DNA of 64,000 nt from Dipteris shenzhenensis (GCA_047967505.1 CM106538.1), one strand, 5' to 3'. Shown: positions 6,001 to 59,820, counted from the first letter of the stretch. Made by a program: numbers and translations. The notes: a model not told the origin generated them from the letters alone.

Positions 6001-6110
6001 GTTTTTTTACGGATGTGCATGACACTAGAGCATAAATAGTATTTAATGCTCGATCGACCATGCAAAGGATAACTTGGCGTGTCCATCTGATGAGTACTTG
6101 ATCGGATAAC
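1..6110 (+). repeat. Tandem satellite, ~182-bp monomer in ~546-bp (3-mer) and ~1090-bp (6-mer) higher-order repeats
   Basis: The motif ATGCAAAGCATATCCGATGG recurs every ~182 bp. GGAATTGACTTACATG recurs near 32, 578 and 1124, with a variant near 1672. Near-identical pseudo-ORFs recur ~1090 bp apart (661/1755, 3371/~4461). Confidence 0.97.
4736..5031. mobile_element. hAT-type MITE (296 bp) inserted in the satellite
   Basis: Termini CAAGGATG...CATCCATG resemble the Ac TIR. Perfect 8-bp TSD ATCTCAAC at 4728-4735 and 5032-5039. AT-rich interior homologous to 51379-51679. Confidence 0.9.
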
Positions 6111-6206
6111 TTCTCCCACCAATAAATTAAGTACTAATTAAAATTTATAATAAATGAGTAGATTATTAGAAAAAGACTAATATTTATGTAATTGTTGCTA
6201 CTGCAG

Positions 6207-9200: not shown

Positions 9201-9707
9201 CCAGCTCTAGTCTTTGAAAATAAATTTGTATCATTACTCCCACGTCCATATTGTGGACCGAAGAAGAGAGAGTTTATGCCACAAGGAGATATAGAGGTCG
9301 ATTGTATTGTTGTGGTTCGGCCATCGGATGATGAATATGAGAATGTGAATTTTTGGGTTGCAAAAGTAGTTGATGTGCAAAGAGATGACCAAGGGAGAGC
9401 TACAACATTTACAGCCGTATGGTATGAGCCAAAGGGCAGGAAGGAGAATATGGATAACAACACATTGTATACTAGTTGTATAATGAAGGAGTGGGTCCCA
9501 AATGATGAAGCGGTCTCTCAAGTTTCGACGGACACAATCATAGTGTCTTGGCATTCAAGGGCAAAGAAATCAAAGAAGCGCATGGGATATGAGGTAGAAG
9601 GAAAAATAAAAATACCACAGTAAAGTATTTTGCATATACACGAATTTTTAAGGATGCTCGTTGTGGAGGAAGTAGAAGGAGACAGTGCAAATGAAGAATG
9701 TCCATGA
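6207..9707 (+). pseudogene. DDE-type transposase (DUF7869/Sola-like core), with one frameshift and one probable premature stop
   Basis: ORFs 6212-8488 and 8436-9623 are joined by a +1 shift in the A-run at ~8447-8453, where copy B is in frame. Motifs: SKCxxC, CLIVDGMD, QADNCWRENKN, FLYVGH(T/I)HEDIDQVFS. TAA at 9621 is CAC in copy B, and the frame continues to TGA at 9707. Acceptor-like CTGCAG ends at 6206; first ATG at 6236. Confidence 0.8.
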
Positions 9708-9825
9708 TTAAAGCTTTGTATTGAAGTCCATTGAAGGATTTTATTTGGGTACTAGGCAAGAAGCCAGTTCAAGACAATTATAATCAGAGTCATCACCTCC
9801 TATGTCAAATGAGAGTCAAAATATG

Positions 9826-10210
9826 CACTGGATGTCACCCAAGGGTCAAGGCTTGGCAAGACAATAGGGAGTTAATGCAGATGGCACCTGGCAAGGGACT
9901 ATCACATTGAGCAATAAGACAATGGGGAGTCAATGCACCCAAGGGGCAAGGCTTGGCAAGACAAGTGGGAGTTAATGCAGATGGCACCTGTATTTTGCAC
10001 TGGATGTCACCCAAGGGTCAGGGCTTGGCAAGACAATAGGGAGTTAATGCAGATGGCACCTCGCAAGGGACTATCACATTGAGCAATAAGATAATGGGGA
10101 GTCAATGCACCCAAGGGGCAAGGCTTGGCAAGACAAGTGGGAGTTAATGCAAATGGCACCTGGCAAGGGACCATCGTGACATTGAGCAATAAGACAATGG
10201 GGAGTCAAAT
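9826..10210 (+). repeat. Subterminal minisatellite (two ~172-bp units built from CAAGGCTTGGCAAGACAA/GAGTTAATGCAGATGGCACC subrepeats)
   Basis: Direct repeats are visible. Only about one unit is present in the homologous region of copy B (~20960-21090). Confidence 0.85.
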
Positions 10211-10786
10211 TATGTAGATGGCACGAATTGGCTCTTTAAGAGCAACAATTTAAATTGTAAACATATGTTCAATCTATATCATTTTGGATATAAAGACTCT
10301 AGCTGAGAGAAACGTCTCTCAATGTAATCATATAATAATAGCTATAATTACTATTATACCTCTTTGGTTCAATACAAAACTTGGGTCTTATGGCATCATG
10401 TCTTTTTTCTATTTATTAAAAGTTTTAAAAATTTTGTGCATATTGCGAGTGACAATATTATTTTCATGAAATATTTAAGTCTCCTTTCATGGATTTATAA
10501 ATTTATCACGTCAAGGAAAAATATTAAAAATAATTACATTAACCAATAACTTAGATATAGCTAGAATTTCTAATATAGGATTATTTCAAATTCTTGCATG
10601 TTGGTGCAAAAGTATAGATTGAAAAAACAATATTTTTATGTGAATATGATAGTGCCACAAAGTGAACTTTTGATTTGGGAATAATATTTTCAAAAAGTAA
10701 AATTTTGATTTGGGAAGGATATTTTCATAAAGTAAACTTTTCATTTGGGAAGGATTTTTGGGCTTCGTCCAAAAACAACAAAATTA

Positions 10787-10812
10787 AGTCCAAAATTAAT
10801 GAAATAGGTGTT
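10787..10812. repeat. Terminal inverted repeat of transposon copy A
   Basis: 25/26 match to the TIRs at 20380-20405 (reverse complement) and 56352-56377. Confidence 0.9.
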
Positions 10813-10842
10813 TTAGTAGTTCTAAGTGATAATATCTCACTA

Positions 10843-12250
10843 CTATATTGTAAATGCTATGTGCTCTATATCCATTTTATCTAGACGATTGTCCCTTGAC
10901 ATCGTCCAATCCTCTACCATGTTTATTTCCATTTCAACTAGATCAATATCTATCTCCTTATCTTCCTCTTGATGCAAATACTCACGTTCTGGAATGTCAT
11001 TCCGCATGAGAGTAAGAATTAGAATCATCAAAAGATTGAAATACAATAATTGAAGGAGAATCTAACCATGTATTCCAAACCCCTGACACCACATTCCTCC
11101 TATGAACAACACTTAAAGGTGCTCAAAAATTTACTCCATTGTAACAAAAATTAATCATCAAGCCTATATAGCATATTTCCATGTAAAGTAATAGGTCTAG
11201 AAGCTAATAATACTTGTGACTCATCCAAAAGATGTATGGGATGTTCATTGTATTGCTTCCTACCCAAATTTGAATTAGCCTAGATAACATCTCAGATTGA
11301 GGCGCTTTTATAGGGAACCCAGAAAAATAATACATCTTGCCATAGGAAATTGGTCCCCTTCGTAGCATTCAAACATATTAAAAACCTAGCTATTTTACCC
11401 AAAGTCGAGTGGGCACCTCCAAGCTGCAGTAGCCATTTAGAGCATAAATTTGCATTTTTCACTATCATAGTACTGTTAAGGCCTAGCCCACCAGCCTCCC
11501 TTGGTCTAGTAACCAAGTCCCAACTGAAGGTATGCCATCTGCCCTCCCAAACAAAATTAGATATGCACCTGTCCACCTTCCTTAGGTTTGTTTTAGAGAA
11601 GGGCCAAACAGACAAAACATAAACATCAATGATTCAACTATATGTTTAGTAGCCGTGAGCCTGCCTACAAGAGATAAAGTCTTGCCAGCCCATTTCTCCA
11701 GCTTTCCTTTGATTCTTTAAAAGGCCCAATCAAAAATGGCTTTGAGACTTGTTCCAGCCCCCCAAGGGCACCCAAAATATCTTATTATTTGTCCTTTTGG
11801 AATCCAATTGAACTGGAAACTAGGAGCCCACTCAGGTAGCTCATCCCATCCAAGCCATAATGCTGTGGTCTTATCATTATTAATCTTTGAATCTAAAAGA
11901 GTTGCAAATTCATTGAAATTCTCGAGAAACTTGATAATATTTTCCGTTGTGCGTACCCAAAAAATTGCGAGCAGAAAGCAGAGCCATCAAGTAGCCTCAA
12001 ACCTTTGAGATTCCCACTATTTAACCGATAATCAATCTAGACCAGTAGAGGCTCGATGACTATTGCAAAAGCAAAGGCGCCAATGGGCAACTTGCCTAAT
12101 TGATCTTTGAAGAGAAAATCTTTGATAATGATACCCATTGACTGGAACTATGGCCCAGGCATTTGAGAACATCATTTTAGTCAACCCACAGAAGCCACTT
12201 CCAAAAACTAAGGTGCGCATGTTGCACAAAGCATTTAGCAGTGCTTCATG
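10843..12250 (-). mobile_element. Degenerate L1-like LINE ORF2 fragment (RT C-terminal part)
   Basis: Minus-strand remnants FSLQRSIRQ, KYFGCP-like, FVWEG...SWDLVTRPREAGGLG are typical of plant L1 ORF2. Many stops and frameshifts. Confidence 0.8.
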
Positions 12251-14533
12251 AATGCATCTGTTAGTCTGATGTCATTTGTTGATAGAGTAATAGAACTTTT
12301 AATAGATATATAATGTCAATTTTGCCATATAATAAAAAAGCAAGCCATTTAATCGGATATCAATATATTAAGATGGATTCTCATTGCTACACATATGAAT
12401 TTCGTGCTGACAATTGACGAGGAGGTGAACCAGGAAGCCTTGAAGGCTCGATCTACAAGCATAACGGGTGCATTGAGTAAAAAACTTGAATGGGGGGTAG
12501 TAGGGAATCGCTCGAGTAAATCCTTCTCGTAAAGGTGGAGCTTACATTGCGAATCCATGTGCTAAATGTGGCATGAATGCGAGGTGGGTGTCAGCTTCAT
12601 GGAGGGCAAAATCGCAGGAAAAGTCGTCCACCAGCAGAGCGTATAAAGGTGAGTAGAGGAGAATGTTCAAGAATCAAGGGAGGTTGGCAAGGAGAATGGA
12701 GCTGTCAAGTGAAGAGCGTCAGCTCACTCTCAGCTGTGCGGACAGTGGTATGCAGGGGGAACACAGAGACAGGAGAGAGAGAGAGACTCGAGACAGAGAG
12801 AGCGTGCATCGTGGAGGGCGAGACTGCAGAGTCGGGCCCAGACTTCAGAGTGTTGTAGTTCTAACTTATCATCAGTTGTGATCTTACAACTTTACAAGTT
12901 ACGTTCTGACTCGTGCTTTCAGGACGGCGTTCGAAACAGATGATATTGTAAACTCACTGACTCACTACTAGTGACTAGAGGAGAAGCGAAAACTTCAAGA
13001 AATTGAGTTTCTGTGGCGAGACCATGGGCTAGGGGATTGCTGGAGGAGAGGCTGGCCGCAGGACCTGGACTCGCTAGGGGATTGCTGGAGGAGAGGCTGG
13101 CCTCACGACCTGGACTCTGGACTCTCGAGCCTGGAACTGGAAGTTGGAGCTACTTCTAAATTTGGGGCGCACTCATTACAAGGACAATCATAGGCTCACG
13201 ATCGTCCTCGAAGTCCAGGACTGAGGAGGCCAGCCAGCAGCAGCCACAGACGGCGCCTCCACGCCCCAGGCTTCGTTAGTTATAAATACTGAAGTTTAAA
13301 CTGTTGTAGCTTCATCATCACCCCTGTTAGCCCGTGCGCACCGCCCCCTTCTCTTCAAAGTTCATACGGCCCACGAAAGCACTGTGCACTCTGTTTTAAA
13401 TACTACTACTAAATAGCATTTCCATTACTGATTGATTACGAGTCGAGCTCACATCGTCTTTCAAGTTTCATCCATCAGATTCAGTCTTGCACATATCTAC
13501 CTTATTATTATTCCACCATTTGCATTTCGCCTTCAAAGCGTATTGATGTTTCTACTCTTCCACTTTGCAGTAGCGTTCCAGCTGCTTGTAAAAACTAAAT
13601 ATAAGCTCTGTGGTTCTACCCTCCACCACCCTGACTCCCTGAGTACTTTAAACTGGCTGACGGCGGATTTTGGCAACATCAATTTCCCTGCCACCACGCT
13701 CAGTAGTACAAAAGCTGCACCCCTCCTAATTGCCCTGCATTTAACGCTAATTCTCGGCTTAATTTCGGACCCACGCACGCTCCACACGCGCTCGGACCTC
13801 GACAGTCGAGAGACCGGCGCTTAAAAATAGTTAGTATAGCGCTTTTAACACGCACTTTAAAGACCCCCTAAAATCTCCTTGTTTTTTGAAATTGATCACT
13901 CCCATAAGAAGAAGAGATATGGGCCTCATGATGAGAGGTGGTGCATCAACGTGGAAGTTGCGGGCAGGTGGCGGGCGTGGATTCGCTGAGTCATGACGGC
14001 AGGAGGAATGCCCGTGGCAGCATGCCGATTCCCGAATCTACGTGTTGACGGCTAGATGGTTGCCACGTGGCAGAGCCGGGCCAGTCTTTTTGTGTGAACG
14101 TCAACGAGGACGGGACCGTTTCCCAGTGACGTGGGATCATTATCCACAAAAAACTGATTAGGCGCTAATTTGGCGGGAATTCAATCTGGCCGCTAAATCC
14201 GACTCCGGCTACTCCCGGAGACAAAATAGGGAAGGCCAAGCGGTTAATGTTTTTGTAATCATTCAGCGGATACTACCAACCATCTCAACTTGAGAAAGGA
14301 AAATTTTGAGCATTTTTCTTCAGCCCTTGACAAACTAACACTTGCGCTATAGAGTGGCATGATTCGTATGTGGAAATCACACGGAACCATGTAATTAATC
14401 CCTCTCTAAAAGCACTCTTGCAACCATGTTTTTGGCCTGCCATATATGGAGGCCTAAGTAAAGCCAATGGCATTTGAGAAAGCTCATTTTTTGAGGGATT
14501 GGCGCCACGTGGAGCCACATCAACGCTTCAAAT

Positions 14534-14646: not shown

Positions 14647-16237
14647 CTTTCTGCCCCTTTTTCCATGGTGCACATTCAATTCATCTTCTTTTTCGATCCC
14701 GGGCAGGCCTTATGAATGATATTCATCTTGTTTTCTTTTTAACTTTTAATGAATTTCATTTGCATCAAAAATAAATAAAATCCCTTCACCTTTAGAAAGG
14801 AGACTTAAGATGTGTTCATAAGCCACTCTAAAGAAACAATGCAATTCGATGGCCAATTCACCGGGATTGTTGAAGAATTGCCCCAAGGAAGGAAGCCTCT
14901 TGATCATTAAGCATAAATTAGGCACATAAGATTAGTAAAGGCAACTAGTCGGCCTTGTTTAGATTCCAAGGGGTCAGCCAAGAACTTGATGTAAACTTCG
15001 AGTTGGTGGCAAGTCTAGCTTGGCCAAAGTGGCAGGTCATCTATAACCCTTCAAAACAAGCTTTGCAATCCCCTCTCAAGCCACCACGACCCCTTGAAAA
15101 TTCAGCATCCACTCTATAGTCAAGCCTGCAATGGTGAGCCCCAAAGCCAATCCCCTGCCCTTTGATCCGTCTCATTGAACCACGTAGTAATTTTACATTC
15201 GAACCACTTAGGGCTTGCTTCCTTGCAAAGATGTGCGCATCTGGGTGCGAGAGCATGCTTTTATTCGGTTGACGCACGAGTTTTTCCAATTGGTGCGTGT
15301 CTTATTGAACAACTTAGGCTTAGTGCACAATTGGCCAGTTTTTAAGACTTGCACAGGAATCAAGGCATGTTTGGAGCACCATTGGTCTCCCTTTACACAC
15401 CTCATGTTTCAAGGTGCTGATTTTGAGCTCCAGTGCGCTCTTTCACCTCCAACCAATAGAAAGCTCGCATTTCTGGCTGACAGTGGGTTGAAAAGATTGA
15501 ACTGCTTTCAATGCTCTATTCTAGCCAATGAAGACTTGCCAGTTACAAACTGTGCAAGTCTTGCAGCTGGTCAGATGACATTTTGCAGCTTCTTGTAGCT
15601 CCCAAGAGCTCGTCAGATGCATGCAGTTAATGCTCACGGCCTTTAGTTCACGCGAAAAAATGTGAAATGCATCGCTTGTATCGCTCCAAAGGTGCCGTGT
15701 GCAGTGGCTCTTACATTCGAATTAGCTATGTTTTGAGGGAGGGTCAAATGATGGAATCATGGTTAGGTGAGGGGCAATAAAGGGGGGGTGAGTTAAGAGG
15801 ACCGGCGTTACGGGCATTAAGGGATGAAAAGGAGGGTGAAAGGGCGCAAGGGTTAAGGAAAGGTTAGGGGGTTTGTATTAACTAGAGTTAAGGGGACTAT
15901 CCATCTTCATCTTCCAAGCGAACTTTCTTCTTTATTCTTCTTCATCATCATCTTCTTCAACAAAATCATCTTCGTAGTTTTCAGCAGCAAAGCTTGCATT
16001 CCGCCATAGCCAGAAAAGCTTGCCTTCTGCCATAGCCGTCAAAGCTTCCACTTCGCCATAGCCAAATGCTTGCTCTTCTCCATCGCCAGCAGTAAGCTCC
16101 CCATGTCCTTTCCGAAAACATGACCTTCTTCCCCCCTCCTCCTCCTCCTCGTCACCTTCCACCCTCCATCGCCTCTCCTTCCTTCCAAACCCTTCCTTCT
16201 CCTTTCTCCCCCTCCTCCTCCTCCTCCCTCCTCAACC

Positions 16238-17551
16238 ATGCCCGCCTCGACTTCCCGCCGCCTCCGCTTTTGCTTCTTGGCATTCACCACCCTCGCTTCC
16301 CTCCTCTTCGTCGTCGCCGTCTTCTTGGCCTCTCCCGCCGCCTCCTCGCTTCTTTCAACCGGTGAGTTATCGTGTCTCCTTTTTGCAATGCCTTCGCTTT
16401 TCCTGTTTTCTGTTTCCGCTCTCCTGCAGCACTCAATGCACGTTACTTTGCACATGCACGCGTTCCTATCGCCCTTTTTTCTTCTTACGTCTTGCTGCTG
16501 TAAGTAGCGTACTACTTCTCGACAGCCCAGTTGATTTAGGAACCCGAGACGGGAACCTCCATATCGCTCTTCACAACCCCAAAAGGGGACCTCAGTTTTT
16601 CTCATTTCCTCCGGGCTCACGGCGTTCCTGCATCTGTCTCCGTCGTAATGTAAAATTCCCCAACTGCATTTTGCTTCGTGGGTCACGACCTGAAGAAACG
16701 AACAATTGGCCCCTTCTTTTCGAAGTGGTCTCCTTCGGCCGATTGTCGTCGTTGAGGTCCTTCTTGGGTGCATTGTCGACGCCGTGTCTTTCGCACATTT
16801 GTCGGATGTTGTTCCTCCGGGAAGCGTGCAATTCTTGAGAACAACCTTTCGAAGACCTTTGGAAAACAGTGTTTAACGTAATAAGAATCTCATTCAAATG
16901 CCGTGCATGACTACCAGATTTGCTATTTCCTTGACCCACGCTCTGCTTGCATGGGTTCTCATTACAGGCTCAATATCTTTTTGCATGTTCAGGTTTTGTC
17001 AAAGGGTTGGAGAATTCTACATCTTCCAGGGTTTTGTACACACAGAGTAGAAACCTTACAAAGACGGTTTTGAGGCTAGATAGGACTAGATCAAGAACTC
17101 GAAAACTCCTGGATCTTGGTGAGTAAAATACAACCCAAGACCGATTTCTTGGAAATTCCCCTAGCAGAACTATCCCTCCGCTTCAAAAACATTGGACTGC
17201 CTCCTGATTTACACGTTCGTGTGTGCAGATCGTATAGGAGATGCTTGTTCCATTGCCGATTTAGCTATACTGCAAGGCGAGACGAGTCCCTTACCCGACG
17301 GTATTCCTTCATTCACCGTACAGATTTTCAACCTCTGCGTTTCTGGGTGCCCCATCACAGATATACATGTTTCTTGTGGTTGGTTCGCATCTGCGAAACT
17401 GATCAATCCAAAGGTGTTCAAACGAATGAGGTTCAATGACTGTATTGTAAATGATGGGATGCCCTTGAATGGTGGAGACAGCGTAACGTTCGAATACGCG
17501 AACTCCTTTCAATATCCCTTGACAATATCTTCTTGTGTGAATACATGTTAG
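16238..17551 (+). CDS. TPD1: TAPETUM DETERMINANT 1-like secreted cysteine-rich peptide, join(16238..16361,16993..17118,17229..17551), 190 aa
   Basis: Exon 1 encodes a hydrophobic signal-like segment, exon 2 ends RKLLDL, and exon 3 reads DRIGDACS...GIPSFTVQIFNLC..GC.I.DIHVSCGWFASAKLINPKVFKR...DCIVNDG...FEYANSFQYPL, the TPD1 signature. GTGAGT donors at 16362 and 17119, CAG acceptors ending 16992 and 17228. Both introns are phase 1 and the 573-nt frame is open. Confidence 0.93.
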
Positions 17552-18830: not shown

Positions 18831-19299
18831 GGTCACTTGAAATGGGAGTTACTTGAAATGGGAGTTATTTTACTTCAAAATATAATTGGAAATTTAGGCT
18901 TTATTCTTAATATGTATCATGGTGACTTGATGTGCGAGTTGTTTTTTCTTTGAAATGCTCAAATTAAGTGGAATTTTTATTTCATGTTGAGTTTACAAAG
19001 ATTGAGCATAAATTTTGTCAGATACTGACATGCAGTCCACTTGTTTTCCACCATCCAAACAAAACTAGGTGTTAGAACATCATAGGTTCATTTGGGTAGA
19101 CAAGTAATGTTTGTTTTTCCTAGCTTGTTATTGCTTTACCTAAGAAGTAGATGTCCTTCTAGATTCTAGAATCTAAAGTAATAAAGCATATGGTTTTTAA
19201 AATAAAAATTCCATGTCACAACTCACAAGCCATAAGTATTGATTCTATATAAATTATCTTTAAGTTATAAAACCTGAATAAAAGAAGGTTAGTCCCAAA

Positions 19300-20379
19300 T
19301 CAACAGTAGAGGACCAATAAGGGGGGTAGTCCACACCCTTAAAAGACCATCTTTTCTTTCCTTTTTCCTTTTTTGAAAATAAAATAGTCGAGTCATATTA
19401 AGAGGGGGGGCAGCCTTGAAAAAACCCCTACGAAAGGTGGCCAAACAAGTGGGTAGAGCCCCAAGCCTACACTCAATGAGTAGAGAGAGAATTGTAAGCA
19501 AAAATAACTCAAGTACAAGACTAAGTTGCTCAAGCATTGGCTTTCTAGAGACTTGCCTTGCTCTGATAGATTACCCATGGATAAGTCTATAAATAAACTG
19601 AAGAGATGGACTATCCTTAAATAAACGTGGAAGCCACTTGCTAATCAGAGATATATTCTTAATGCTCACGTCTGGAATGCCAAGACCCCCTTGTTGTTTC
19701 GGAGACTTTAGGTCAGCCCATGGCAAGTAGTGCATTTTGCACCTACCATTCTCCTCTACCCATAGAAATGCACGGAGCACTCTTTCGATCTCTTGCCACT
19801 ATGTATGTCTAAATGACCAAACCGAAGCTACATAAGTTGTAGTGGTAGATAGTACATGCTTAATGATGAGAACTCTAGCATTCCAACCTAAGGGTACTCC
19901 ATGCCGGCTTTTTAGCTTATCCTTAATTTGGTCTTTAAACCATTCAAAATGCTGCTTTAAAGATACTCCATTCCCTAATGGAGCCCCTAAATACCTCACA
20001 ATTTGCCCACGGTTAATCGATTGCACAGGCATGTTTCTAACCCACACTGCAATAGCATCATCTAAAGATCTGACAGAGCAAATGATTTCTTCCAAATACA
20101 CACTAACTCTGATGCCGTACAAAAGCAAGAGACGATATTATTCAAAGCATTAATGCTATGCTACACTTCAAGCGAGAAGGCCATCCGATCATCTGCAAAC
20201 ATCGGGGAGCAAAATTTCTTCCCTGATGGTAGCATTATTCCTCGCAGTTGTCCCTCCTTCATAGCCCTTTTTAGGAGATTAAGAAGTGGAGCCAAAAAAA
20301 GTGCAAAAAGAAGAGGGGCTATTGGGCAGCCCTGAAAGATAGAGCACGTGAGGTTGAAGGTTCCAGCAAAACTCCATTA
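19300..20379 (-). mobile_element. L1-like LINE, 3' part of ORF2 (RT from the QGCP motif onward), degenerate
   Basis: Minus-strand SIFQGCPIAPLLF, MFADD, VRYLGAPLG, FLW...KMHYLPW...QGGLGIP. Cut at the ATTA TSD of the giant element. Confidence 0.88.
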
Positions 20380-20405
20380 AACACCTATTTAATTAATTTT
20401 GGACT
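20380..20405. repeat. Left TIR of copy B
   Basis: AACACCTATTTAATTAATTTTGGACT, preceded by ATTA. Confidence 0.92.
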
Positions 20406-21213
20406 TTTTCTGTTGTTTTTGGATGAAGCCCAAAAATCCTTCCCAAATGAAAAGTTTACTTTGTGAAAATATCCATCCCAAATCAAAATTCTACTTTTTG
20501 AAAATATTCTTCCCAAATCCAAAGTTCACTTTATGGCACTATCATATTCACATAAAAATCTTGTTTTTTCAATCTATACTTTTGCACTAACATGCAAGAA
20601 TTTAAAATAATCCTATTTTAGAAATTCTAGCTATACCTAAGTTATTTGTTAATTGAATTATTTTTAATATTTTTCCTTAACGTGATAAATTTATAAATAT
20701 GAAAGGAGACTTAAATATTTAATGTAAATAACATTGTCACTCACAATATGCACAAAATTTTTAAAACTTTTAATAAATAGAAAAAGACATGATGCCATAA
20801 GACCCAAGTTTTGTATTGAACCAAAGAATTATAATAGTAATTATAGCTATAATTATATGTTTACATTGAGAGACGTTGCTCTCCGCTGGAGTCTTTGTAT
20901 AAAATGATATAGATTGAACATATGTTTACAATTTCAATTGTTGCTCTTAAAGAGCCTGAATTCATGCCATCTGCATTGACTCTCCATTATCTTATTACTC
21001 AATGTGACAGTCCCTTGCCAGGTGCCATCTGTATTAACTCCATATTGTCTTGCCAAGCCTTGACCCTTGGGTGACATCTAGTGCATATTTTGACTCTCAT
21101 TTGACATAAGAGGTGATGACTCAGTACAGTTGCATCTACTAGTCTAATAATATATGATTATAATTGTCAATTGGCTTCTTGCCTAGTACCCAAATAAAAT
21201 CCTTCAATGGACT

Positions 21214-24200
21214 TCAATACAAAGCTTTAGCGCTGTCTCCTTCTACTTCCTCCATGGCGAGCATCCTTAAAAATTCGTGTATATGCAAAATACTGTGCTG
21301 TGGTATTTTTATTTTTCCTTCTACCTCATATCCCATGCGCTTCTTTGATTTCTTTGCCCTTGAATACTAAGACACTATGATTGTCTCTGTCGAAACTTGT
21401 GAGACTGCTTCATCATTTGGGACCCACTCCTTCATTATACAATTAGTATACAATGTGTTGTTATCCATATTCTCCTTCGTGCCCTTTGGCTCATACCATG
21501 TTGTAGCTCTCCCTTGATCATCTCTTTGGACATCAACTACTTTTGCAACCCAAAACTTCACATTCTCATATTCATCATCTGACAGCTGAACCACAACAAA
21601 ACAATCTACCTCTATATCTACTTGTGGCATAAACTCTCTCTTCTTCGACGTAATGATACAAATTCGTTTTCAAAGACCGGAGCTGGGCGCAAATCGTTAT
21701 GAACATTTGGCCAAAATATATTGCATTCTTCCTTGACATCCTTTGAGCCTCGCATTCTCTCAAGGTCCTTCATTAATTTTTGTGTCTTGTTAATTACAGT
21801 GGTAGTGTGTTCTCTCCAAGTAGGCTTCGAAGCAGGATACCTCCAGAGCATTTTCTCTTTGTATGTAATAAATGCTTTTAATCCTTCTATTTCATAGTTG
21901 GACCTCTCATTGAATTCTTGTATAGGAGCCCATGTTGGATACCTTTCCTTGCTGGGAATTGAAGTTAAGAGACTGTAAGGTTCTTTAGGTTCCCATTTTG
22001 TATCATGAGAATACTGTTGCCATTGCATTACGGGTTTTTCATCTTAAAAAAAAAACGAAAGTAGTGTGGATTGGTATGACCTGTCAATGCATCACTACCC
22101 GTTTGTATGAAAGGTAGAATGAAGCTCTTCTAATCATACATTCTTTCGAGCCTCTCACATACTGTACTTTCCTTACGACCACCAACTTGCCTGCCACATC
22201 TTCTTACCAAGTCATCTATTGTCTCCACATCCTTGCATTTAAGGTCTCTTGAGACTATGCTAAAAACCTGATCGATATCCTCATGTGTATGCCCAACATA
22301 CAAAAATCCACATTCGATCTCATTGAAGATTCGATGAGCAACTAGCATGGAGCAGAATGCAAACATGAGTACATTCTTATTTTCTCGCCAGCAATTATCA
22401 GCTTGTATTCTCAAAGTCGGTGGTAGGCAACCTTTTTCTGCATGTACATTGTGAATTGCCTTCATAATAGATGTTACAACTTGATTGCTATCATGTAGAT
22501 GCAAGGAATCAATCCATATATCTGCAAAAAACTTAATTCCATGCACTAACACTCCACATAGATGTGTGTTTAGAAAGTGCTTTCCTTGTAATTTAGGTGT
22601 TGTGGCAACAAAACGAGGCAATGTTGTTGTATTCTGATCCATGCCATCTACAATAAGGCACATGTAGTCATCGGGATGCAAAATAGCTTGCTCCTTCCAA
22701 AATGCATATTTTTGTCTAGAATGTCGAATAAGGTCATGATGAGATTTTTTGTTTTTTTTGTATAATTCCCTTCGATTTGGACATGTTGCACTCTCAATCG
22801 CTCGCTTTAAACCATCACAGACATTGCACTTTGACATTTTTTGCCTCTTTGGGATTTATCCAAAGTTCTTCTTCCAAAGAGTATACAAAGTATGAGAAGA
22901 AGCCACGGCATCCCCTCTTTGCCTTTGCTTTTCTGCAATAGAGTCAAATACTTCGAGCTTTGTCAAGCCCATTGGAAGGTGCATTTAAGTGATCGCGTCA
23001 CCGTTAGGGAGTTTGGTAGATATATGGGGTTGAGGTAAAGCATTTTCATGTATGAAGTCTTGCAAAATTGCTGCTACCCTGACAGTTGAGATTCTTGATT
23101 TGGACCTTCCTCTATTATCGTGAATGCTAAATTTGTTGCGGCCCTTTGCCTTGGTGACTAAATCCCAATATGTACCATGGGATAATCCAGTAATATTGCG
23201 ATATGCCTTATTGCAAATCTTTTTTCCATTTGCGAGAGGTTTTTCCTTTTGTCTTGAACTTAGCCTTTTATTGCCATTCTGAAGAAAGCAAGAGAGACTT
23301 GTGAGAAGGTATTCATTTCTTTCGCTTCCTCTTCTTTGCCACACATGTCCTCTATATTCCCTGATGTCTACAAGATCAATGAAGCGCATACATCTTCGCT
23401 TGCAACATAGATATCCCAATGCATTTAACATGTTCTCCTCCTTCATTACTCTCTTCCTCTTTGGTTGCTTTTGTGGATTTGCTTGGATTCGCTTTCTCTT
23501 CATGCATATGTATGACTGTTTTTGTTCCTCATGCACGTTGTTATCTATATTTATGCACTTCTTCTCCTCACATTTGTTTGTAACCAAGCATCCATGATTG
23601 GTCGTTGCATCCTTGGCCATATCACAATCAAAGTTAAATATTGAATAATCCTCTATTGATCTCATCCTCGTTTTTAACATACTCTTAGGACCATTCAATG
23701 AATTCAATATTCTACGAGAGTATTGAGAACCTTGAAACTCTTCCACTCCTGAGAGAACATCGTTCATTGGGACATCGTGCATGGTTTTCACAATCCACAA
23801 GCTTGATTGACACCAAGTTTGTTAATATGCATGAACTCATCCACACTTGACAAGACATCGCTATTGAAATCTTTGCCCTTCTCACTGTGCAAGAATTGAT
23901 CCACCCTAGATAAGGCTTTGCTTCTAAAATCATTTTGTTTCTCAGAACCAATGAACTCATCCACTCCAGATAAGATGTCACTTCTATAATTGAGTACATT
24001 GAAATCATCTACGTTTGAAGTGATAGAGCCTGGCACATGGGCACGCTTTTTAGGTTCTTTGATATTGTAGTATACCTTGTCTTTATCATTGAAAACCATG
24101 TGCCTCTTTCTCATGTTTAAAAATTGCATGCTCCATCTCATATTCTTGCCTACCTCATAGTAGGGATCACATAAGGATGTTATGTTATCAACCATACCAT

Positions 24201-24551
24201 CATCAGTGACTTTTAGAATCCTCATCTGTGCAAATGACCATTGCTCCACTTGTTCAAATCCCAATATTTCACCTTCTGCTATAGTCTTATTTGCAAATGA
24301 TCTCATTTGTAAAACGTCCCCTATAGTAAAATCCAAGGTGGTGCACTTTGTATTCTTGATAATGTCTGTTGCTTAAGTCTCATCATTGTCCCATGCTATA
24401 AATGATTTGTTGGATGTATTGTAGGGCATAACTTCTCCAAGTGTTTCCATATCTTCACATTTATACTTTAGCTCAACATGTGCACTAAGAATCTTTGATA
24501 CAGTGACTGCCACCTTATCTTCACCAAGTCTTCGAAAGTGGCAAACTGAAT
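21214..24551 (-). pseudogene. Transposase of copy B (DUF7869/Sola-like), 5'-truncated and multiply frameshifted
   Basis: ORF pieces 23788-24336, 22985-23800, 22130-22837, 21618-22028 and 21367-21630 are near-identical in protein to 6212-9623. It retains SKCNVC, DGMDQ, DNCWRENKN and GHTHEDIDQ. Confidence 0.85.
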
Positions 24552-52010: not shown

Positions 52011-52695
52011 GCATATATGATGTTGTTTTTGTATATATGCATGAGGAGCATATTCTCATGATGTTTATTCCATGAATATTATGGTTGACATTTATTTGTT
52101 GCAATGTATGAATCATGATGTTGTTTTTGTTCATTATACACCAATTTGTGACTTATTACTAAGTGGCATTTAGTCTTGATATTTATATATTTATTTCATG
52201 CACACAATTTTATGATATGAATGTGTGATGATGTGATTATTTGGAAATATAACCTTGTGTGATGATGTGATTATTTGGAAATAAATGTGTGATGAGAACA
52301 TAATAATTATTTGTAATATATTTCACTCCAAAGTATCAATTCCCAATGCTCCATTCACTTAAAGTACAGCATTCCCAATGCTCTGCAAGATTTTGTTCAG
52401 TTGGACAGTCTCCACTCACTTAAAGTAGAGCATTCCCAAATGATTCACTCACTTTATTCCAACCCTTATCCTTATCATAGTGAACACATCGTGCCTTAGT
52501 GCACTTGTATTCGTCCATCCTAGTCCTTCCACAAACACTCTTATTTCTTACATCCTAGTCCTTCTCATTAACTTGTATTCGTCTTTCACTTTACATCTTC
52601 CCTCACTTTCTATCACTCTTGAAGGAGGGGCGGCTCACTGTGCATCCCTCGCTATTGCTCCCTCACTCTCCTTCTCCCACTTTCCCTCTAAGACA

Positions 52696-55600
52696 ATGAC
52701 TAGTTACTACACAACTTCATTTACTAAACTCAAATTCTGTCTTAGATCCCTTTTGTATGGACCAATGAAGGGAAAATCATTTGAGGAGGATATGTTATGC
52801 ACATGGCTGCTTGATTTGAACTCAGCAGAAGAGGTTGTTGAGAGATATGGTGCCATGAGCACATAGATTAATGGGCTAAGGTATGGTATAGGAAAGAATT
52901 AAAGTAGCCACCCTAAGATGTGGACTACATGATGTGGAGATGTGGATTGAGGATATCCACAAGGAGAGATGTGGATGAGAGGATCCCACATGGTTTGACT
53001 ATTCTAAAGGCTCTCTCTATATAAGAAGCCTATCATGTATTGTTGAGTACAAGGAGAAATGCACATTCACTCAAGCTTCTGTTTATGAGTCCAAGTTAAT
53101 CTATCTTGGAACCTAATTGACTTGAGGTACATGTCATGAGCACTCTCTTCATCATGTTTACACACAGGTTCCATCCACCTTAGAGCGCTCCATAAATCGT
53201 GAGGCACGCATGTTTTCTCATGGTATCAGAGCTTAGGTCTAGTCTTCTAGATTAGTTGTAGGCATGACTTAGGAGATCACGTTTTCTCCAAGATTAGTTT
53301 TAGCTTTATATTGAGAGGTCTCTTCTACTTGGAGAAATTTTTCATTAGAGATTTTAAGTTAGTCTCATTTCCATCTACTCTTCTTTATTTCGTGTGAGAG
53401 AGAGAGAATTGAGTTGCGAAAGAGTAGTGCTTCTCTAAGCTAGTAGAGAGGAAGAACATTGTGAATAGCTCACAATTGATGTGGAAGATAGCTAAAGTAG
53501 CTGCGCAAATAGTAGGAGGACTCATTGAAAGTTGGAGTGGCTAACCACTTGTGAAAAAAAAAAACCGAACTGAGGCTGCAGTAGAAGCCTCCAAGAAGTA
53601 GAAGCTTGAAGAGAAGATCATAAGAGGGAGCCGCCAGAAGTCAAGAAAGCTTCGACACTCTTCAATATAGCTAATACCAGTGACTACCAAGCAGCAACAT
53701 ACATAATAGTAACGAGCTCCTCGACGAGCGGCTCAGTGGCCTCTACAACACAAGTGACACAAAGGCTCCAACAGCGCTGGACCAGAGTCACCCGGGTGAG
53801 ATGCTACAACGACCTCATGCTCGCATCGCCTTAGCCATCGACAACTCTAACAAGTTCTACTCAGACTCGGCCGGTGCAAAGCATACGAGACAATCATCAG
53901 CCATCCACGAGTAGCGCATCCTCGACCTTCCAGCAACGCTCGACCCTATGTCCTTCAACAACCTCAAAGCAGTCTCCCGCATCAATCGACTCCATGTCTC
54001 CCACAAGCGACTGAGCACCGGCTCCGCTCTTGCAACACCATCGACTCTGGTAGCAGAAACAAATTCTCTGCACATCTTCATCAGCAGACAGCCTCACACC
54101 CTCTCCAAAGGCCTTGACAAACCCAGCCGCTGCCTGCGACTCCTTGCAAAAGCACCGCCTCCTCCATGAGCTAACAGCCCATGACAGAGCAAAGCTCCCA
54201 GACTAGAAATCGATCCCTGTGTGTCTCCAGCGGGATGACTTCAAACAACCACAACTGTCTCGACCGACCAGCTCTGTAGCATCCTCATCGTCGCCACGCT
54301 CGATGACCTCACAGGCTTCAAGGATCTCTACCAAAAGACACGTGGCAGATAATAACTAACCAGGGTTAGTTAGAAGCACCCTTGGTTAAATGTGGAGTCA
54401 TCAGGGTTAGTTCAACCTTGGTCAAGTAACTGTGGTAAAGATGAACCATGGTTAGGTTTAGGATAAGGATTGGTTAATATGCCACATCATCTACAGTGCC
54501 ACCTAAGCACAGTTTGTAAGCAGCATGTGAATCCCTATGCCACATCATCGAGGCCCCCTCTTTTTCACAGAATCTTTGACAAGCCGTAACTTGCAATCCA
54601 AGAAGAATTTGGACACGCTCCAAAAAGGAAAAGTGATCGTCTTTTCAAGCTCTACGCGCCTGTCAGATCAGAATCATTGTATGCAATTAGACACTGCCAA
54701 TATTGAAAGAAATCAATTGGTAAGACCTTTGCAACAAATGGAAAAGCAAAGCATGAATGCACACATCATTGTCATAAGCATGCCAAAAGCACAAGTGCAT
54801 GAGATGACCATAGCAGAAAGCATGGCATCCACACATAAAGCATCAAGGCACATGGAAGAACAAAGCATCATGCATGAAGCTACATCGAGTAAAGATGCAA
54901 ACGCCATCGACATGAAGCATTGAAAAGCAAAAACCTTGCCAACCTTGCCTATATTTTTTGTAAATCAAACCTGACCACCTGAGAGTAGCTATGAAAGCAC
55001 CCAGGGGAGGTATTGACATGTAAAAACCACACTTGACCACCTTAAGTAGCAATGTATGCACTAAGGGGAGGTGATGGATTTGTAACTCACGTCTGACCAC
55101 CTTGCAGTAGCCAAAGGATCATGGCACCAAGGGGAGGTGTTGAGAGATATGGTGCCATGAGCACATAGATTAATGGGCTAAGGTATGGTATAGGAAAGAA
55201 TTAAAGTAGCCACCCTAAGATGTGGACTACATGATGTGGAGATGTGGATTGAGGATATCCACAAGGAGAGATGTGGATGAGAGGATCCCACATGGTTTGA
55301 CTATTCTAAAGGCTCTCTCTATATAAGAAGCCTATCATGTATTGTTGAGTACAAGGAGAAATGCACATTCACTCAAGCTTCTGTTTATGAGTCCAAGTTA
55401 ATCTATCTTGGAACCTAATTGACTTGAGGTACATGTCATGAGCACTCTCTTCATCATGTTTACACACAGGTTCCATCCACCTTAGAGCGCTCCATAAATC
55501 GTGAGGCACGCATGTTTTCTCAGAGGTGAATATCCCTAGCTTTCTTTTTTGCTTCTTTTTATCACGTACTTCTTATGCTAACGAGTTAAATTTTCATACA

Positions 55601-55844
55601 AGATATGGCGGTGGCCAGAAGCTGTATTGAAAAAAATGGTGAAGATGAGGAAAGCCAAGAGAGAAAAGAGGAGTTGTTGAATGCTTACAAGTCAGTGGAA
55701 GATTCGAAACAGGTTGTGAGGAGAGTCTGTGAGGAGATTTGCGATGCCAGCCCTGGTTACACATGGCCTGCAGATTTAAAGTTTGCTTGTTTTCATGAAG
55801 CCAATGCCATAGTAGGCACTTTCGAGGACATATGCTCTCTCTAA
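52696..55844 (+). pseudogene. Possible small two-exon cargo gene (52696-52833 and ~55602-55844) disrupted by the LTR element
   Basis: Removing the LTR element gives ...NSAEE|GTGAAT, a short T-rich intron, then DMAVARSCIEK... The acceptor appears mutated and no homology was recognised. Confidence 0.35.
52836..55522 (+). mobile_element. Non-autonomous LTR retroelement (2687 bp; TRIM/LARD-like)
   Basis: 385-bp TG...CA LTRs (52836-53220, 55138-55522) that look identical. GAGGT TSD at 52831-52835 and 55523-55527, tRNA-Met PBS at 53221, PPT AAGGGGAGG before 55138. No gag/pol motif recognised inside. Confidence 0.95.
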
Positions 55845-56351
55845 TGACATAATAGTCAAGTGATGGAAATTTAATTCCATAGAGACTTATGTGTTTTCTA
55901 AAGTAACTGTAATAGACAAGAAATGAAACTACAGTTCCACAAAGACTTTTTAGTTTTGTAATGTAAAGTTGTAATAGACAAGAGAGACCAAGATGAGATC
56001 TTCTAGGCTGAGCTAATGGAAGGTGTTTTTTGACACCATATGGCTTTGAGTTATATGATCTACTTCTTGTACAAATGTGTCATGCCTTTTTTTAAATGTA
56101 CTCTAGTTTTAATAACATGTCACGCCATTTTTTCTAATTTGATTTTTTAAAATCTTACTTTTTGTCTCTTTTAACAACGTGATGTCCTCTTTTTTTAATG
56201 TACTCTAGTTTTAATAACATGTCACATCATTTTTTCTAATTTGATTTTTTAAAATCTTCCTTTTTTACTCAAAGTTTTGTTTTAAAAGAGCCTCTTTTTT
56301 TAAAATGCTTTATCCAAAATTATCTCACAAAATGAATTTGGACAGTGCACC

Positions 56352-56377
56352 AGTCCAAAATTAATAAAATAGGTGTT
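56352..56377. repeat. Right TIR of copy B
   Basis: AGTCCAAAATTAATAAAATAGGTGTT, followed by ATTA. Confidence 0.92.
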
Positions 56378-56381
56378 ATTA

Positions 56382-57000
56382 AGACACAATGCAACTAAGG
56401 CATTCCCAAAGAGCATTGCTATCATCCAAATAAATGTGGATACAAAGCCTAAGTTATCGAGAAACATGAGGCTAAAATCTCATCTTATGCGGTCATAAGC
56501 CTTATCGAGGTCTAGCCCAAACAGGATGCAGCTTTGCCCCATAGTTGAAGCATAATGAGAGCATAATTCAGAAGCAAATTAATATTCAGAATATTGAAAA
56601 AACTCTAACGGCCCTTGACAAAGCCAGCTTTCTCTCTATCAATGATTTTCATACAAATCTCCTGGATTCTAAGGGCAAGTGACTTAGCAATTATCTTATA
56701 CGAAGAATTAAGCATGGTGATGGGACGCCAATCCCCCACCTGCAAATGACTTTGTCTTTTTGGAAATAGTTTTATAAGACCTAGTATATTGACATCTAAG
56801 GAGAGGGCTCCCTTCATCACTAAAGCATTAGCCATTGCCACAAGGTCCTTCCCCAAAACTTCCCAAAAACTGAAGTAAACTCAGTTTTGAGGCCATCAGT
56901 ACTCGAAGCTTTCAGTATCTCCTAAGGCCTTTCGCCACAATTCATCTTATGTATCATGGGAACCCAGTGAATCTGTCAAATGATTGAAGAAAGTTTGTAA
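56382..57000 (-). mobile_element. L1-like LINE, RT N-terminal part (continues at 20379)
   Basis: Minus-strand WRPITMLNSSYKIIAK, GFVKGR, LDLDKAYDR...GNALVALCL. Confidence 0.9.
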
Positions 57001-57382
57001 TACTATTGCAGATTGTTTCTCCTTAAAGAATCTCTCAAATTTAGGAGAAATTTGGTTGTTTTGAAAAACTATGCATTGATTTACAATAGCAATTTATCAA
57101 AAGGCTAAAATATACAATATTTTAGGTTCTTGAAAAATTTTATTACATAGAATCTACAATACTAAAACTACACACTCCAACTTCTCATTTTGGGATGCAA
57201 GGAAACTATAATGAAAATGTATGTAATTTAATACATTAAAAGATATTAGAACACATGAGCAAATGAAACATTATTGATTTTTTTCACTCCTTTTATTGAA
57301 TTGGCTCTAGTGCTTGTACATACATATAATTTATCTTTAAATTTCTTGTAATTTGAATTTAATTGGCATTATTGCTTTTACA

Positions 57383-57624
57383 CTCGGGGGGGTCACTATG
57401 TATAAACCCTCTATATCGCGTGCGTTCAAGGCTTATTTTTAAAATCCCTTATCTATACATTTTTCGTTAATAAAATGTACCCCTTTTCTACACAAATCTG
57501 TAAATTTTTTCCAAAACTATTTTAAATAGTCCCTTATGTATATTTATTTCTGTAAATTTTAGAAATAAAAAAATATGCTCTGGTTGAACTCACGTGATAG
57601 GGTTACATATGTGAGCCCCCCGAG
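57383..57624. mobile_element. MITE (242 bp) with GC-rich TIRs
   Basis: CTCGGGGGGGTCAC...GTGAGCCCCCCGAG, extending imperfectly to ~45 bp. Flanks CTTTTACA/CTGTTACA form a 7/8 TSD. Confidence 0.8.
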
Positions 57625-58484
57625 CTGTTACATGCACACATGATGCCTTAATTTATGAAATGATCATGGTTGAAATCATGAAGATCATAAGATAAGTGCA
57701 GCAATTCAAATTTTAGCTCCATACTCTAAAAGATAAGGAATGAAACTCTTATATACATCATAACTTATATCTGTCATTTAAGTTTGTAAAATTTGGAATT
57801 ACTAAATATTACATGTTTGTGACATCAAGGATACCTTGGCTTATTCATGCTCAAGACACAAACAAAGTACTTCTCTTGACATAGAAGAGATATGCAACAT
57901 ATTGCAAATGCTTTGGGCAACATTTACAATTACCCAAAAATTTTGCACTTTTACAAGATAAGAACCAAAATCTAAAGCATAAGAAAAAAAACAACATTGA
58001 ACATATAACATGAAGCTTTAAATCTATCTCATTCAATTCCTGGTAAGTATACTTCAATCTCCTTATGTCACATAAGTATTCAATACAAAAATAAATTGCA
58101 TATGACACAAGCTAATTGCTTTTTACATCATGCTTTAAACATGATGATAAATTAATATGTATAAACTACCATGTAACAAAAACAATGTTTGCAAGTTTTC
58201 ACATGATTCAATAAATTAACTTGAATTTTAATATACTATATAAATTAGATGGAGATTTAAAGCACTTAAAATTGGACTTTTGAAAGAGCTAAAGCATGAA
58301 GAAAAAGAGTTCATGCAAAAGTAGCATCTTGTAAAGCTGCTTTGAGACATTACAATCAATAATAACTGCTCAAAGCATGTTTATTACAATAACAACTTCA
58401 AAAAAGGAACTATATCAAATATTTGATCAAACTTAAACATCCAAAGGTTGGTCATGTTGTTCTTTGGATACATCATATTTAAAA

Positions 58485-59820
58485 GGCAAACATCAAGTGA
58501 AAGCTTCAATTCATGTTTTTCATCAAGTTGAATCTTTAATTCGATGTTTTGCATCAAGTTGAAGATTCAATTCTATGATTTGCATTGAATTGGAACTTCA
58601 ACTTATGCAAAACATCAAATTAAGGCATAAACTTGATGTACATCATCAAGTTGGTTTAATTTGATGATTTGCATCAAGTTGAAGCCTAGAGTTGCTGTAA
58701 AACATTGAAGTTGATGATTGACATCAAGCTAAAGCCTAAAGTTGATGTCTAAGGTCAAGTTCAAGCATAAAATTAGTATTAAATTTTACTTTTTGTATCA
58801 ACTTTTGATTTACAAGAAAATGTACCGAATGTCTATGGTTACATTGTAGTCAAACTAGTTGCGTAGCCAGGGGGTGTAAACAGCGGGTGGAGGGGTGCAT
58901 CAAGGAGTTGCACAGCATCATAGCCAGGGGGCATAGGGGGTAGCGGCATAGGGGGCACAATGACAAGTAGAGGCACAGGGGTATAGGGGCAAAGTGGGCA
59001 TAGGGGTGAGTAGGGTTGTAGAGGTGCAAGGCAAATCGAGACACAAGGCTTCGATTTGTTGCATCCAGTTGAAGCTTCAACTCGATGCAAAACATCAAAT
59101 TGGAACTTAAACTTAATGTAAAACATCAAGTTGAAGGTTCAATTTGATGTTTTGCATCAAGTTGAAACCTTGAATTCATGTAAAAACATCATAATTTTGA
59201 AGCTTTAACTTGATGCAAAACATCAAATTGAAGTCAGACTTGATGTAAAACATCGAATTAAAGGTTCAATTTGATGTTTTGCATCAAGTTAATGCCTAGA
59301 CTTGATTGAATTGATGTTTAACATCAAATTAAAGCTTAAATTGGATGTCCAAACTCAAGTTCAACCATGAACATAATATTCAATTGTAATTTTTGTTTTA
59401 TGATTTGAATTCCAAAGAGATATTATATGTTTTCCATGCTTATATTGTAATAAAACCCTAATCAAACTAGTGGCACAGCCCAGGGGTGTAACCACGAGGT
59501 GGAGGGATGTAGGTAGGTAGTGATCAAGGGTGTAGCTAGGGGACATAGGGATTATGGGTGCAGGAGACATAGGATGATCAGGGCCCTAGGGACACAGGGC
59601 AAGTAGGGGCACAAGGGCATAGTGGGCATAGGGACACAAGGGGCAGGGGCAAGTAGGCACGGTGAGAAGGGGCTAGCATAGGTACAACAAGAGAATGAAA
59701 CAAATAAGAGGGGACGGGCATCATATTCACAAAAGGGATGGGATGGCATAGCTAGGGGTGAGGGGGATCATGGTGTAGCCAAGAGGAGCATTAAGATGGA
59801 CAAGGGGATGGCAAACAACT
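58485..59820. repeat. Array of short palindromic CATCAAGTTGAA/TTCAACTTGATG motifs alternating with G-rich GGGGCATA blocks
   Basis: Many head-to-head copies at 58485-58800 and 59050-59365. G-rich blocks at ~58850-59035 and ~59460-59810 share an AAACTAGT.GC..AGCC.GGGGTGTAA start. Confidence 0.75.

Follow-up and report, generated by a model that had tools for sequence, protein, structure and literature searches.

Sola transposons (Bao et al. 2009) encode a DDD transposase, duplicate 4 bp of target sequence, exceed 15 kb in some members and are present in moss (PMC10741241). Sola1 and Sola2 are described as having AT-rich 4-bp target site duplications (TSDs) with a preference for AWWT (PMC3845634, PMC3627910), the superfamily is said to be absent from the angiosperms analysed so far (PMC9804982), and a RepeatMasker table for the fern Ceratopteris contains 2,739 Sola pieces, which make up 0.06% of the assembly (PMC6890710). 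Here, we analysed 64,000 nucleotides of DNA from Dipteris shenzhenensis (GCA_047967505.1 CM106538.1; this whole stretch is called the window) and interpret its positions 20380–56377 as one copy, termed copy A, of a very large cut-and-paste transposon family in a fern, the transposase of which belongs to the Pfam family DUF7869. We assign this reading a probability of roughly 80%.

Giant cargo-bearing DNA transposons are already known from algae and fungi. Those of brown, green and red algae comprise Sola1, KDZ and EnSpm transposons with accessory genes and nested insertions, activity in Chlamydomonas is cited for a KDZ element of 31.7 kb, and the giant DNA transposons of Ectocarpus, a 21.5-kb Sola1 included, contain nested transposable elements, pseudogenised transposases and accessory genes on the opposite strand (PMC12477816). 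The fern element resembles Sola in its DDD transposase, its AT-rich 4-bp TSD, its short to medium terminal inverted repeats (TIRs) and its large size, some Sola members being longer than 15 kb, as well as in a patchy distribution that includes non-seed plants (moss, for Sola) and many aquatic invertebrates. It differs in that its 27.5 kb (36 kb with nested elements) exceed any size that we found stated for Sola and in that a 7-kb satellite and a 5-kb purine tract occupy its interior. Sola1-1_Ec32 and the other Ectocarpus giants (KDZ, EnSpm, Sola-1) share with it a length above 20 kb, nested transposable elements, an often pseudogenised transposase and an accessory gene opposite to the transposase strand, whereas their host is a brown alga and their accessory protein is described as ParB-like plus DNA methyltransferase (PMC12477816), domains that our searches did not reveal in the second ORF of the fern element. 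On giant or Sola transposons of ferns, the literature searched gave nothing beyond the Ceratopteris table. New here is a DUF7869-type, Sola-like fern family that carries a satellite array together with a second gene region, and not a new kind of element. An original prediction, made from the DNA alone, had proposed an undescribed family of giant plant DNA transposons; the family is real, but the claim of novelty has to be narrowed in view of the algal giants and the tabulated Ceratopteris pieces.

Termini, copies and insertion site

Copy A is bounded by TIRs of 26 nt at 20380–20405 (plus strand) and 56352–56377 (minus strand). The left TIR is identical to the reverse complement of the right one at 25 of 26 positions, the likeness ends past position 26, and ATTA stands directly outside each TIR (20376–20379 and 56378–56381). 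A search of the window with the 25-nt TIR pattern, allowing up to three mismatches, found three sites, namely the two ends of copy A and 10788–10812, so that every site is an element end and none lies inside the block; in 100 dinucleotide-preserving shuffles, the maximum was 0 matches in any one of them. The predicted 26-bp TIRs with one mismatch, 36 kb apart and with ATTA on both sides, were thereby found as described, and the TIR/TSD match together with the zero shuffle matches upholds the reading as a single TIR-bounded insertion of a DDE/DDD cut-and-paste transposon. The termini begin with AACACC. Position 12 is the sole variable position among the three ends, with A at 20391, T at 56366 and C at 10801. 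Inside the left TIR, three direct repeats of approximately 35 bp (20440–20545, plus strand), with CCAAAT at element positions 64, 99 and 134, are conserved in the second copy and are candidate binding sites of the transposase.

The third end belongs to this second copy, copy B (1–10812, plus strand), which is truncated by the window start and inverted relative to copy A. It consists of the satellite (1 to approximately 6200), the transposase gene (6236–9623) and a TIR (10787–10812), which is followed by TTAG. In a self-comparison of the window, 6327–10812 matched 24551–20380 in inverted orientation with 91–93% identity, and a MAFFT alignment of the two copies gave 94.3% identity over 4,267 aligned bases. 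The homology stops exactly at the TIR tip (10812 = 20380), and the sequence past TTAG is unrelated to copy A. That the homology between the copies ends at the TIR tip is independent evidence that the TIR marks the true end of a repeated unit and that this unit constitutes a family. The 3′ subterminal region of copy B is approximately 279 bp longer than that of copy A (9937–10215), the extra stretch being a local tandem duplication of the part that matches 20972–21085 in copy A.

Contigs from four runs (X1 to X4) extend this picture. When compared with 43900–58500, they covered 43.9–53.1 kb in all four runs, mostly with 90–99% identity, and in the run that provided a 2-Mb contig set, the depth was 18–83 over this interval and up to 162 over nested long terminal repeats (LTRs). 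From this coverage, the right half of the element is also multi-copy. Two runs contain about one quarter of the sampled words of 19400–24400, and no RNA data set was listed among the runs. The contigs gave no cover at 53640–54126, almost none at 54127–54613, and at 56562–57048 none in X1, X2 and X4 and next to none in X3; no loose end at 56377 was present among the matches listed. Membership of the element in a family is thus carried both by copy B in the window and by the many contigs of 90–99% likeness in all four runs.

Copy A interrupts a long interspersed nuclear element (LINE) on the minus strand. The upstream half of the LINE lies in the right flank (56378–57277) and reads ...LDLDKAYDRIR*DFS...ALCLN; the downstream half lies in the left flank (19000–20379) and begins with SFAGTFNLTCSIFQGCP... 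The Pfam reverse transcriptase (RT) family RVT_1 matched the right flank with profile positions 59–104 (E 0.023) and the left flank with 118–190 (E 4.6e-4), both matches being under the curated cut-off. Because the flanks hold consecutive parts of one RT domain on the same strand, the block sits within a single old LINE copy, and the predicted junction of the empty site is ...CTCCATTA joined to AGAC... The interrupted LINE is decayed, with at least three frameshifts and several stops, and no LINE paralogue across the insertion site is present within the window. Another LINE fragment, C-terminal to the RT, lies just beyond the end of copy B (11292–11845, minus strand) and shows 33–36% protein identity to the 3′ part of the interrupted LINE.

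Transposase and its relatives

The transposase gene is intronless and encodes approximately 1,130 aa. In copy B (6236–9623, plus strand), it is open over 772 + 399 aa and interrupted by one extra base at 8446, while copy A contains a pseudogene (21295–24614, minus strand) with several frameshifting indels, of which the open reading frame (ORF) 22130–22855 retains the whole catalytic core. DUF7869 (PF25273) matched this ORF with 158.6 bits (E 1.8e-46, cut-off 26) and the copy B ORF 8424–9623 with 142.8 bits, and no other Pfam family was found in the transposase ORFs, including the 772-aa and 399-aa ORFs of copy B. Both copies are defective. Because its genes have decayed, copy A would now be non-autonomous and mobile only with a transposase from another copy.

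A homologue search among longer proteins gave 61 relatives from 310 candidates, the best of which was 58% identical. Eleven of the 61 have an organism name, and all of these come from marine invertebrates or amphioxus (hydrozoan, coral, sea urchin, bivalves, nemertean); the remainder are environmental or assembly proteins. Several relatives of 1,044–1,070 aa have the full architecture in common with the fern protein, including the C-terminal part. In an alignment of 42 sequences, consisting of 41 of the 61 relatives and the window ORF, D70, D73, Q151, N159, H189, H191 and D193 are invariant, and D153, N154 and D195 are conserved in at least 90%, giving the pattern DGMDQ ... QADNC.RENKN ... GHTHEDID. 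The DNC..NKN..GH..D core noted in the original prediction is therefore real and conserved. The three catalytic aspartates (D70, D153 and D193, encoded in copy A at 22646–22648, 22397–22399 and 22277–22279 on the minus strand) are spaced by approximately 83 and 40 residues, without an inserted domain between them.

The AlphaFold model reached a pLDDT of 85.1 and a pTM of 0.84. Its best structural match was the Mos1 mariner transposase (Z 10.5, rmsd 4.0, 179 aligned residues), accompanied by retroviral (lentiviral, RSV) integrases (Z 10.5, 2.9 Å, 130 aligned), Metnase (Z 10.4) and IstA (Z 10.3). Foldseek returned the same families, with a best E-value of 1.2e-3 and nothing at E <= 0.001, and a search of PDB sequences with the transposase family profile gave barstar only (E > 1), hence no solved relative by sequence. 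The modelled fold identifies the enzyme as an RNase H-like DDD type, and the combination of fold and motif suggests that it cuts and joins DNA in the manner of Mos1 and integrase-type enzymes. Among the relatives, the 947-aa oyster protein P0039 is a fusion of a DUF7869 transposase with an N-terminal OTU cysteine-protease domain (Pfam E 5.6e-9), and represents another cysteine protease tied to this transposase family.

A scan of metagenome contigs yielded 484 confirmed relatives, from which 80 loci were kept. We surveyed the flanks of 60 loci of at least 2.5 kb, requiring a pair of inverted sequences, each 18 nt or longer, on the two sides of the transposase match, and found such a pair in 9 of them, corresponding to 7 independent loci. 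One of these seven has an exact 4-bp flank repeat, one more is added if the ATAT of locus L072 is counted, and another one at 3 of 4 bases; a control with shifted flanks gave 0 of 36. L072, which is the same locus as L070 and L075 (99.6–99.7% mutual identity), contains an element of 11,273 bp (1206–12478) with terminal bases that are identical to the fern TIR at 23 of 26 positions and with ATAT on both sides. Locus L010 has a 26-nt TIR, a length of 3,703 bp and AAAA flanks, and locus L015 has a 34-nt TIR and the flanks TCTT and TATT. With ATAT in L072 and AAAA in L010, the AT-rich 4-bp duplication recurs in relatives of the fern element and, together with copy A, has modest support for the DUF7869 enzyme family.

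Because the core of the L072 transposase is only approximately 28–47% identical to that of the fern enzyme, and no nearer to it than to animal proteins, the conservation of the ends is striking. The two elements also have in common a DUF7869 transposase that lies near one end and reads outwards and three repeated passenger modules on the opposite strand. L072 differs in its smaller size of 11.3 kb, in the absence of a satellite and in its passengers, which are NIF/FCP1-type phosphatase-like modules (Pfam NIF, E 1.6e-14). By eye, L072 contains three ...DD..-box repeats, which parallel the triplicated module of the fern element.

Composition of the element and its surroundings

Without its three nested insertions, which sum to 8,447 of 35,998 bp, copy A measures 27,551 bp, within the 27–28 kb originally estimated for the element without its Copia, LTR element and miniature inverted-repeat transposable element (MITE). 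Of this length, 6,980 bp are satellite and 5,341 bp an 80%-purine tract, so that approximately 12.3 kb are repeats and not genes. The proposed layout, with the transposase on the minus strand followed by the satellite, the purine tract, a plus-strand ORF with an IDGQH motif (ORF2), three module repeats and a small ORF, was borne out as well.

The 182-bp satellite (24552–31531) consists of 38.5 units with 72% matches. Because it is present in copy B too, the satellite is part of the element and no later arrival. Beyond it lie the purine-rich tract (31600–36940), in which A+G make up 80% of the plus strand and (AG)n forms long imperfect runs, and two 258-bp direct repeats that are 94.6% alike (37328–37897). 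The nested Copia (38548–43988, plus strand) has 700-bp LTRs that are 99% alike, a TGCAT TSD and an intact polyprotein ORF of 1329 aa (39307–43296) with the full Pfam domain set. A 163-bp tandem duplication with copies 97–98% alike (38320–38655) spans the junction between the element and the Copia 5′ LTR; because it crosses this junction, it is later than the Copia insertion. The MITE-like insert (51369–51677) measures 309 bp, has CATGGATG inverted ends and a TGCCATT direct repeat, and is skipped by contigs of all four runs. A non-autonomous LTR element of 2.7 kb (52836–55522, plus strand) shows 99.7% likeness between its LTRs, a GAGGT TSD and a tRNA-Met-type primer site past the 5′ LTR. It is followed by the right subterminal region (55523–56351), which contains two 76-bp direct repeats and a minus-strand ORF of 161 aa (55594–56079) that matches no family. 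Contig depth was raised at 52195–52541 (21.6 in X1, 82.8 in X2), and several runs have loose ends at 52195, 52390 and 52541; this stretch is probably another short high-copy nested repeat, at which the homology among copies changes.

The second gene region begins with ORF2, a long decayed frame (44240–47976, plus strand) of seven stop-to-stop pieces that is divergent from the transposase and carries the motif (F/W)(E/Q)P(I/V)DGQH..AC at 45614–46060. A 258-residue read-through of ORF2 found six relatives only among 1.84 billion representatives (best E 3e-15), which share EP(V/I)DGQH..AC; ORF2 matched no Pfam or NCBIfam family, and none of its relatives was found in the 80 metagenome loci. For the idea of a ParB/Srx-like 'DGQHR' protein, a model of the homologue P0088 (7-row alignment) had a pLDDT of 40.9, too poor for a fold comparison. 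For part of P0089, an Atlas lead suggested a link to fungal DUF3723 clusters (0.95, with 187 features in common), for which Pfam gave no confirmation.

The repeated module is built of four pieces with intron-like separation and occurs twice in full and once in part. Repeat 1 (47590–48874, plus strand) contains SHWSL... and EQKDGHSCG boxes, repeat 2 (49412–49772, plus strand) comprises the first two pieces only, and repeat 3 (50152–51344, plus strand) has approximately 73% DNA identity to repeat 1. In Ulp1/C48 proteases, the boxes follow the order His, Asp, Gln, Cys. The fern module shows the SHWSL and EQKDGHSCG boxes, with Asn where Asp would be expected. Peptidase_C48 (PF02902) gave sub-threshold matches for two of the eight module pieces tested, in both cases the His-box piece, with 11.0 and 14.9 bits against a cut-off of 20.7 (E 0.37 and 0.024); read-through frames matched nothing at E <= 0.01, and a PDB sequence search with two module pieces returned nothing relevant. 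An Ulp1-like identity of the module is therefore plausible but not established. Of the '3x Ulp1-like' part originally named, the threefold repetition stands, with one partial repeat, whereas the name hangs on the two sub-threshold matches.

Ulp1-bearing MULE and CACTA elements occur in seed plants, in which Ulp1-like domains are typical passengers. With these and with Pack-MULEs (PMC6431247), the fern element shares a TIR transposon structure with amplified, seemingly intron-bearing modules that may be host gene fragments and may include a cysteine-protease-like passenger; unlike them, it has no MULE or Transposase_21 match, a sub-threshold Ulp1 match and a TSD of 4 bp and not of 9 or 3 bp.

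Between the two head-to-head copies lies a host exon (17165–17551, plus strand) of the TPD1-like family (TAPETUM DETERMINANT 1, PF24068), the ORF of which shares 80% identity with a protein of Adiantum and 79% with one of Ceratopteris. Because this ORF is closest to Adiantum and Ceratopteris, the host is a fern. Upstream of the exon, a GC-rich stretch (16039–16872) has an open frame on either strand (277 and 258 aa), the translations being of low complexity and rich in Arg/Glu or in Pro/Ser. Scanning the window for Rfam families and tRNAs gave no matches.

Competing readings and meaning

If 20380–56377 is one copy of such a transposon family, the analogy to mariner and integrase-type enzymes suggests that the transposase binds both the 26-nt TIRs and the subterminal repeats of 35 bp and that it excises the whole element. 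The ends would then be joined to an AT-rich target with a 4-nt stagger, the repair of which would give the ATTA duplication. Upstream of the transposase gene, the element carries a multi-kb array of the 182-bp satellite, which at least two copies have in common. Its other side comprises a second long reading frame, transcribed away from the transposase, and an intron-bearing module in three repeats, possibly a fragment of a captured Ulp1-like gene. Since its insertion, copy A has gained the Copia, the small LTR element and the MITE-like insert, and its genes have decayed.

Several observations weigh against this reading or parts of it. With one ATTA removed, the two LINE halves are one base out of frame right at the junction, so that of the 'cleanly split' LINE in the original prediction, the consecutive RT parts on one strand stand and the clean join is less certain. 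The empty site of copy A fits a duplication of 4 bp (ATTA), 3 bp (TTA) or 2 bp (TA) equally, which leaves the TSD length ambiguous from this copy alone, with symmetric ends under the 4-bp reading only. The far end of copy B lies outside the window. ATAT in L072 is palindromic and could belong to the TIR, and the remaining four of the seven independent survey loci have no flank repeat. Coding identity between copies A and B (94.1%) equals non-coding identity (94.8%), which gives no sign of selection on either copy. Only in copy A are ORF2 and the module observed together with the transposase half. Contigs from the runs are short, and among those listed none bridges the right half to the right TIR. 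As to Sola, only three sites are available for comparison with AWWT, of which ATAT (L072) fits and ATTA (copy A) and AAAA (L010) do not, and our comparison was with the published description of Sola only.

Among the known superfamilies, several were set aside. The termini AACACC and the lack of a Transposase_21-type match speak against CACTA/CMC (EnSpm), which has CACTA termini and TSDs of 2–4 bp, and the flanks ATTA, ATAT and AAAA against Kolobok and piggyBac, which target TTAA. KDZ/Zisupton elements have TSDs of 8 bp. The flanking repeat of the fern element has 4 bp, and no KDZ Pfam match was found. Academ is described as having either an XPG-type nuclease with a TSD of 3–4 bp (AcademX) or a helicase with a TSD of 9–10 bp (AcademH; PMC10045372), and is unlikely given that the ORFs of copy B contain DUF7869 alone and no nuclease or helicase domain. 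PIF/Harbinger was rejected for want of a DDE_Tnp_4 or Plant_tran match and for the unequal ends that a 3-bp reading gives copy A.

The possibility that the TIRs match by chance or reflect an assembly error and that the block is no mobile unit draws on the visibility of only one complete copy; it has next to no likelihood in the face of zero matches in 100 shuffles, a third end with the same 25 nt at which the homology between copies stops, a homologous TIR that bounds an independent metagenome element seen three times, and LINE halves that are consecutive. A 3-bp TSD (TTA in copy A and TAA at the end of copy B, that is TWA) would make the element PIF/Harbinger- or Zator-type. The empty site fits TTA too, and TAA precedes the end of copy B on the comparable strand, but the ends of copy A would be unequal by one base, the flanks in L072 and L010 have 4 bp, and Pfam gave DUF7869 only, with no PIF (DDE_Tnp_4, Plant_tran) or Zator-related match, which renders this reading very improbable. 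We regard it as unlikely, though distinctly less so, that the right half (approximately 44–52.8 kb) is foreign, being either a further transposon that is nested in copy A or host DNA that the lineage of this copy alone acquired. Its Ulp1-like domains would be typical of plant MULE/CACTA passengers, its exon-like modules differ from the intronless transposase, the loose ends at 52195, 52390 and 52541 and the raised depth indicate at least one other repeat there, the NIF phosphatase-like passengers of L072 are quite different, and the 80 metagenome loci contain no ORF2 relative. Against this, no MULE, CACTA or other transposase family was found in 43.9–56.4 kb, the region lacks a TIR pair with a TSD at its borders, its copies diverge to a similar degree as A and B, and within a single insertion it is enclosed by the satellite side and the matching right TIR.

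The nearest competitor accepts the same single insertion but assigns the DUF7869 enzymes to a separate, unnamed DDD superfamily with 4-bp duplications instead of Sola. In its favour, no mention of 'DUF7869' was found in the literature searched, ATTA and AAAA fall outside AWWT, and the family profile finds no solved relative by sequence; moreover, a 2017 survey gives Sola, Kolobok, Novosib, Academ and Dada as having no Pfam match (PMC5751038), so that by this source DUF7869 could be any or none of them. In favour of Sola, an AT-rich 4-bp TSD combined with a DDD enzyme is exactly the published Sola definition, with ATTA/ATTA in copy A, ATAT/ATAT in L072 and AAAA/AAAA in L010, and with a triad of D70 and D193 (invariant) and D153 (at least 90%) on an RNase H-like fold (Z 10.5). 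RepeatMasker reports Sola in a fern, and the named relatives of the transposase come from cnidarians, an echinoderm, amphioxus, bivalves and a nemertean. Bivalves are reported Sola hosts, and cnidarians, echinoderms, amphioxus and nemerteans also include Sola hosts. On balance, we consider a separate superfamily possible but doubtful and membership of Sola slightly better than an even bet.

Reading 20380–56377 as one copy of a DUF7869 transposon family has consequences for the enzyme family and for fern genomes. DUF7869, hitherto a Pfam 'domain of unknown function' with a wide occurrence among marine animals and environmental eukaryotes, gains a biological identity as a transposase with a 4-bp duplication and defined ends, and the copy B gene, which is nearly intact except for one frameshift, provides a starting point for work on its activity. 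The DNA transposons of the huge fern genomes have hardly been characterised, one RepeatMasker line ('Sola', 2,739 pieces) being the only trace that we found. A TIR element of 28–36 kb would be one of the largest cut-and-paste transposons reported from land plants. As a more speculative proposal, in which we place rather little confidence, DUF7869 may define a so far undescribed DDD superfamily distinct from Sola1–3, with a plant-associated lineage that has a near-constant 26-nt TIR despite deeply diverged transposases, habitually captures and triplicates host modules, Ulp1-like ones in the fern and NIF phosphatase-like ones in L072, and, in ferns, includes satellite carriers of approximately 28 kb; if true, such elements would be a source of satellite DNA and of gene-fragment shuffling in very large fern genomes. 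A multi-kb satellite array can travel within a transposon, which would allow satellites to be seeded directly at new loci.

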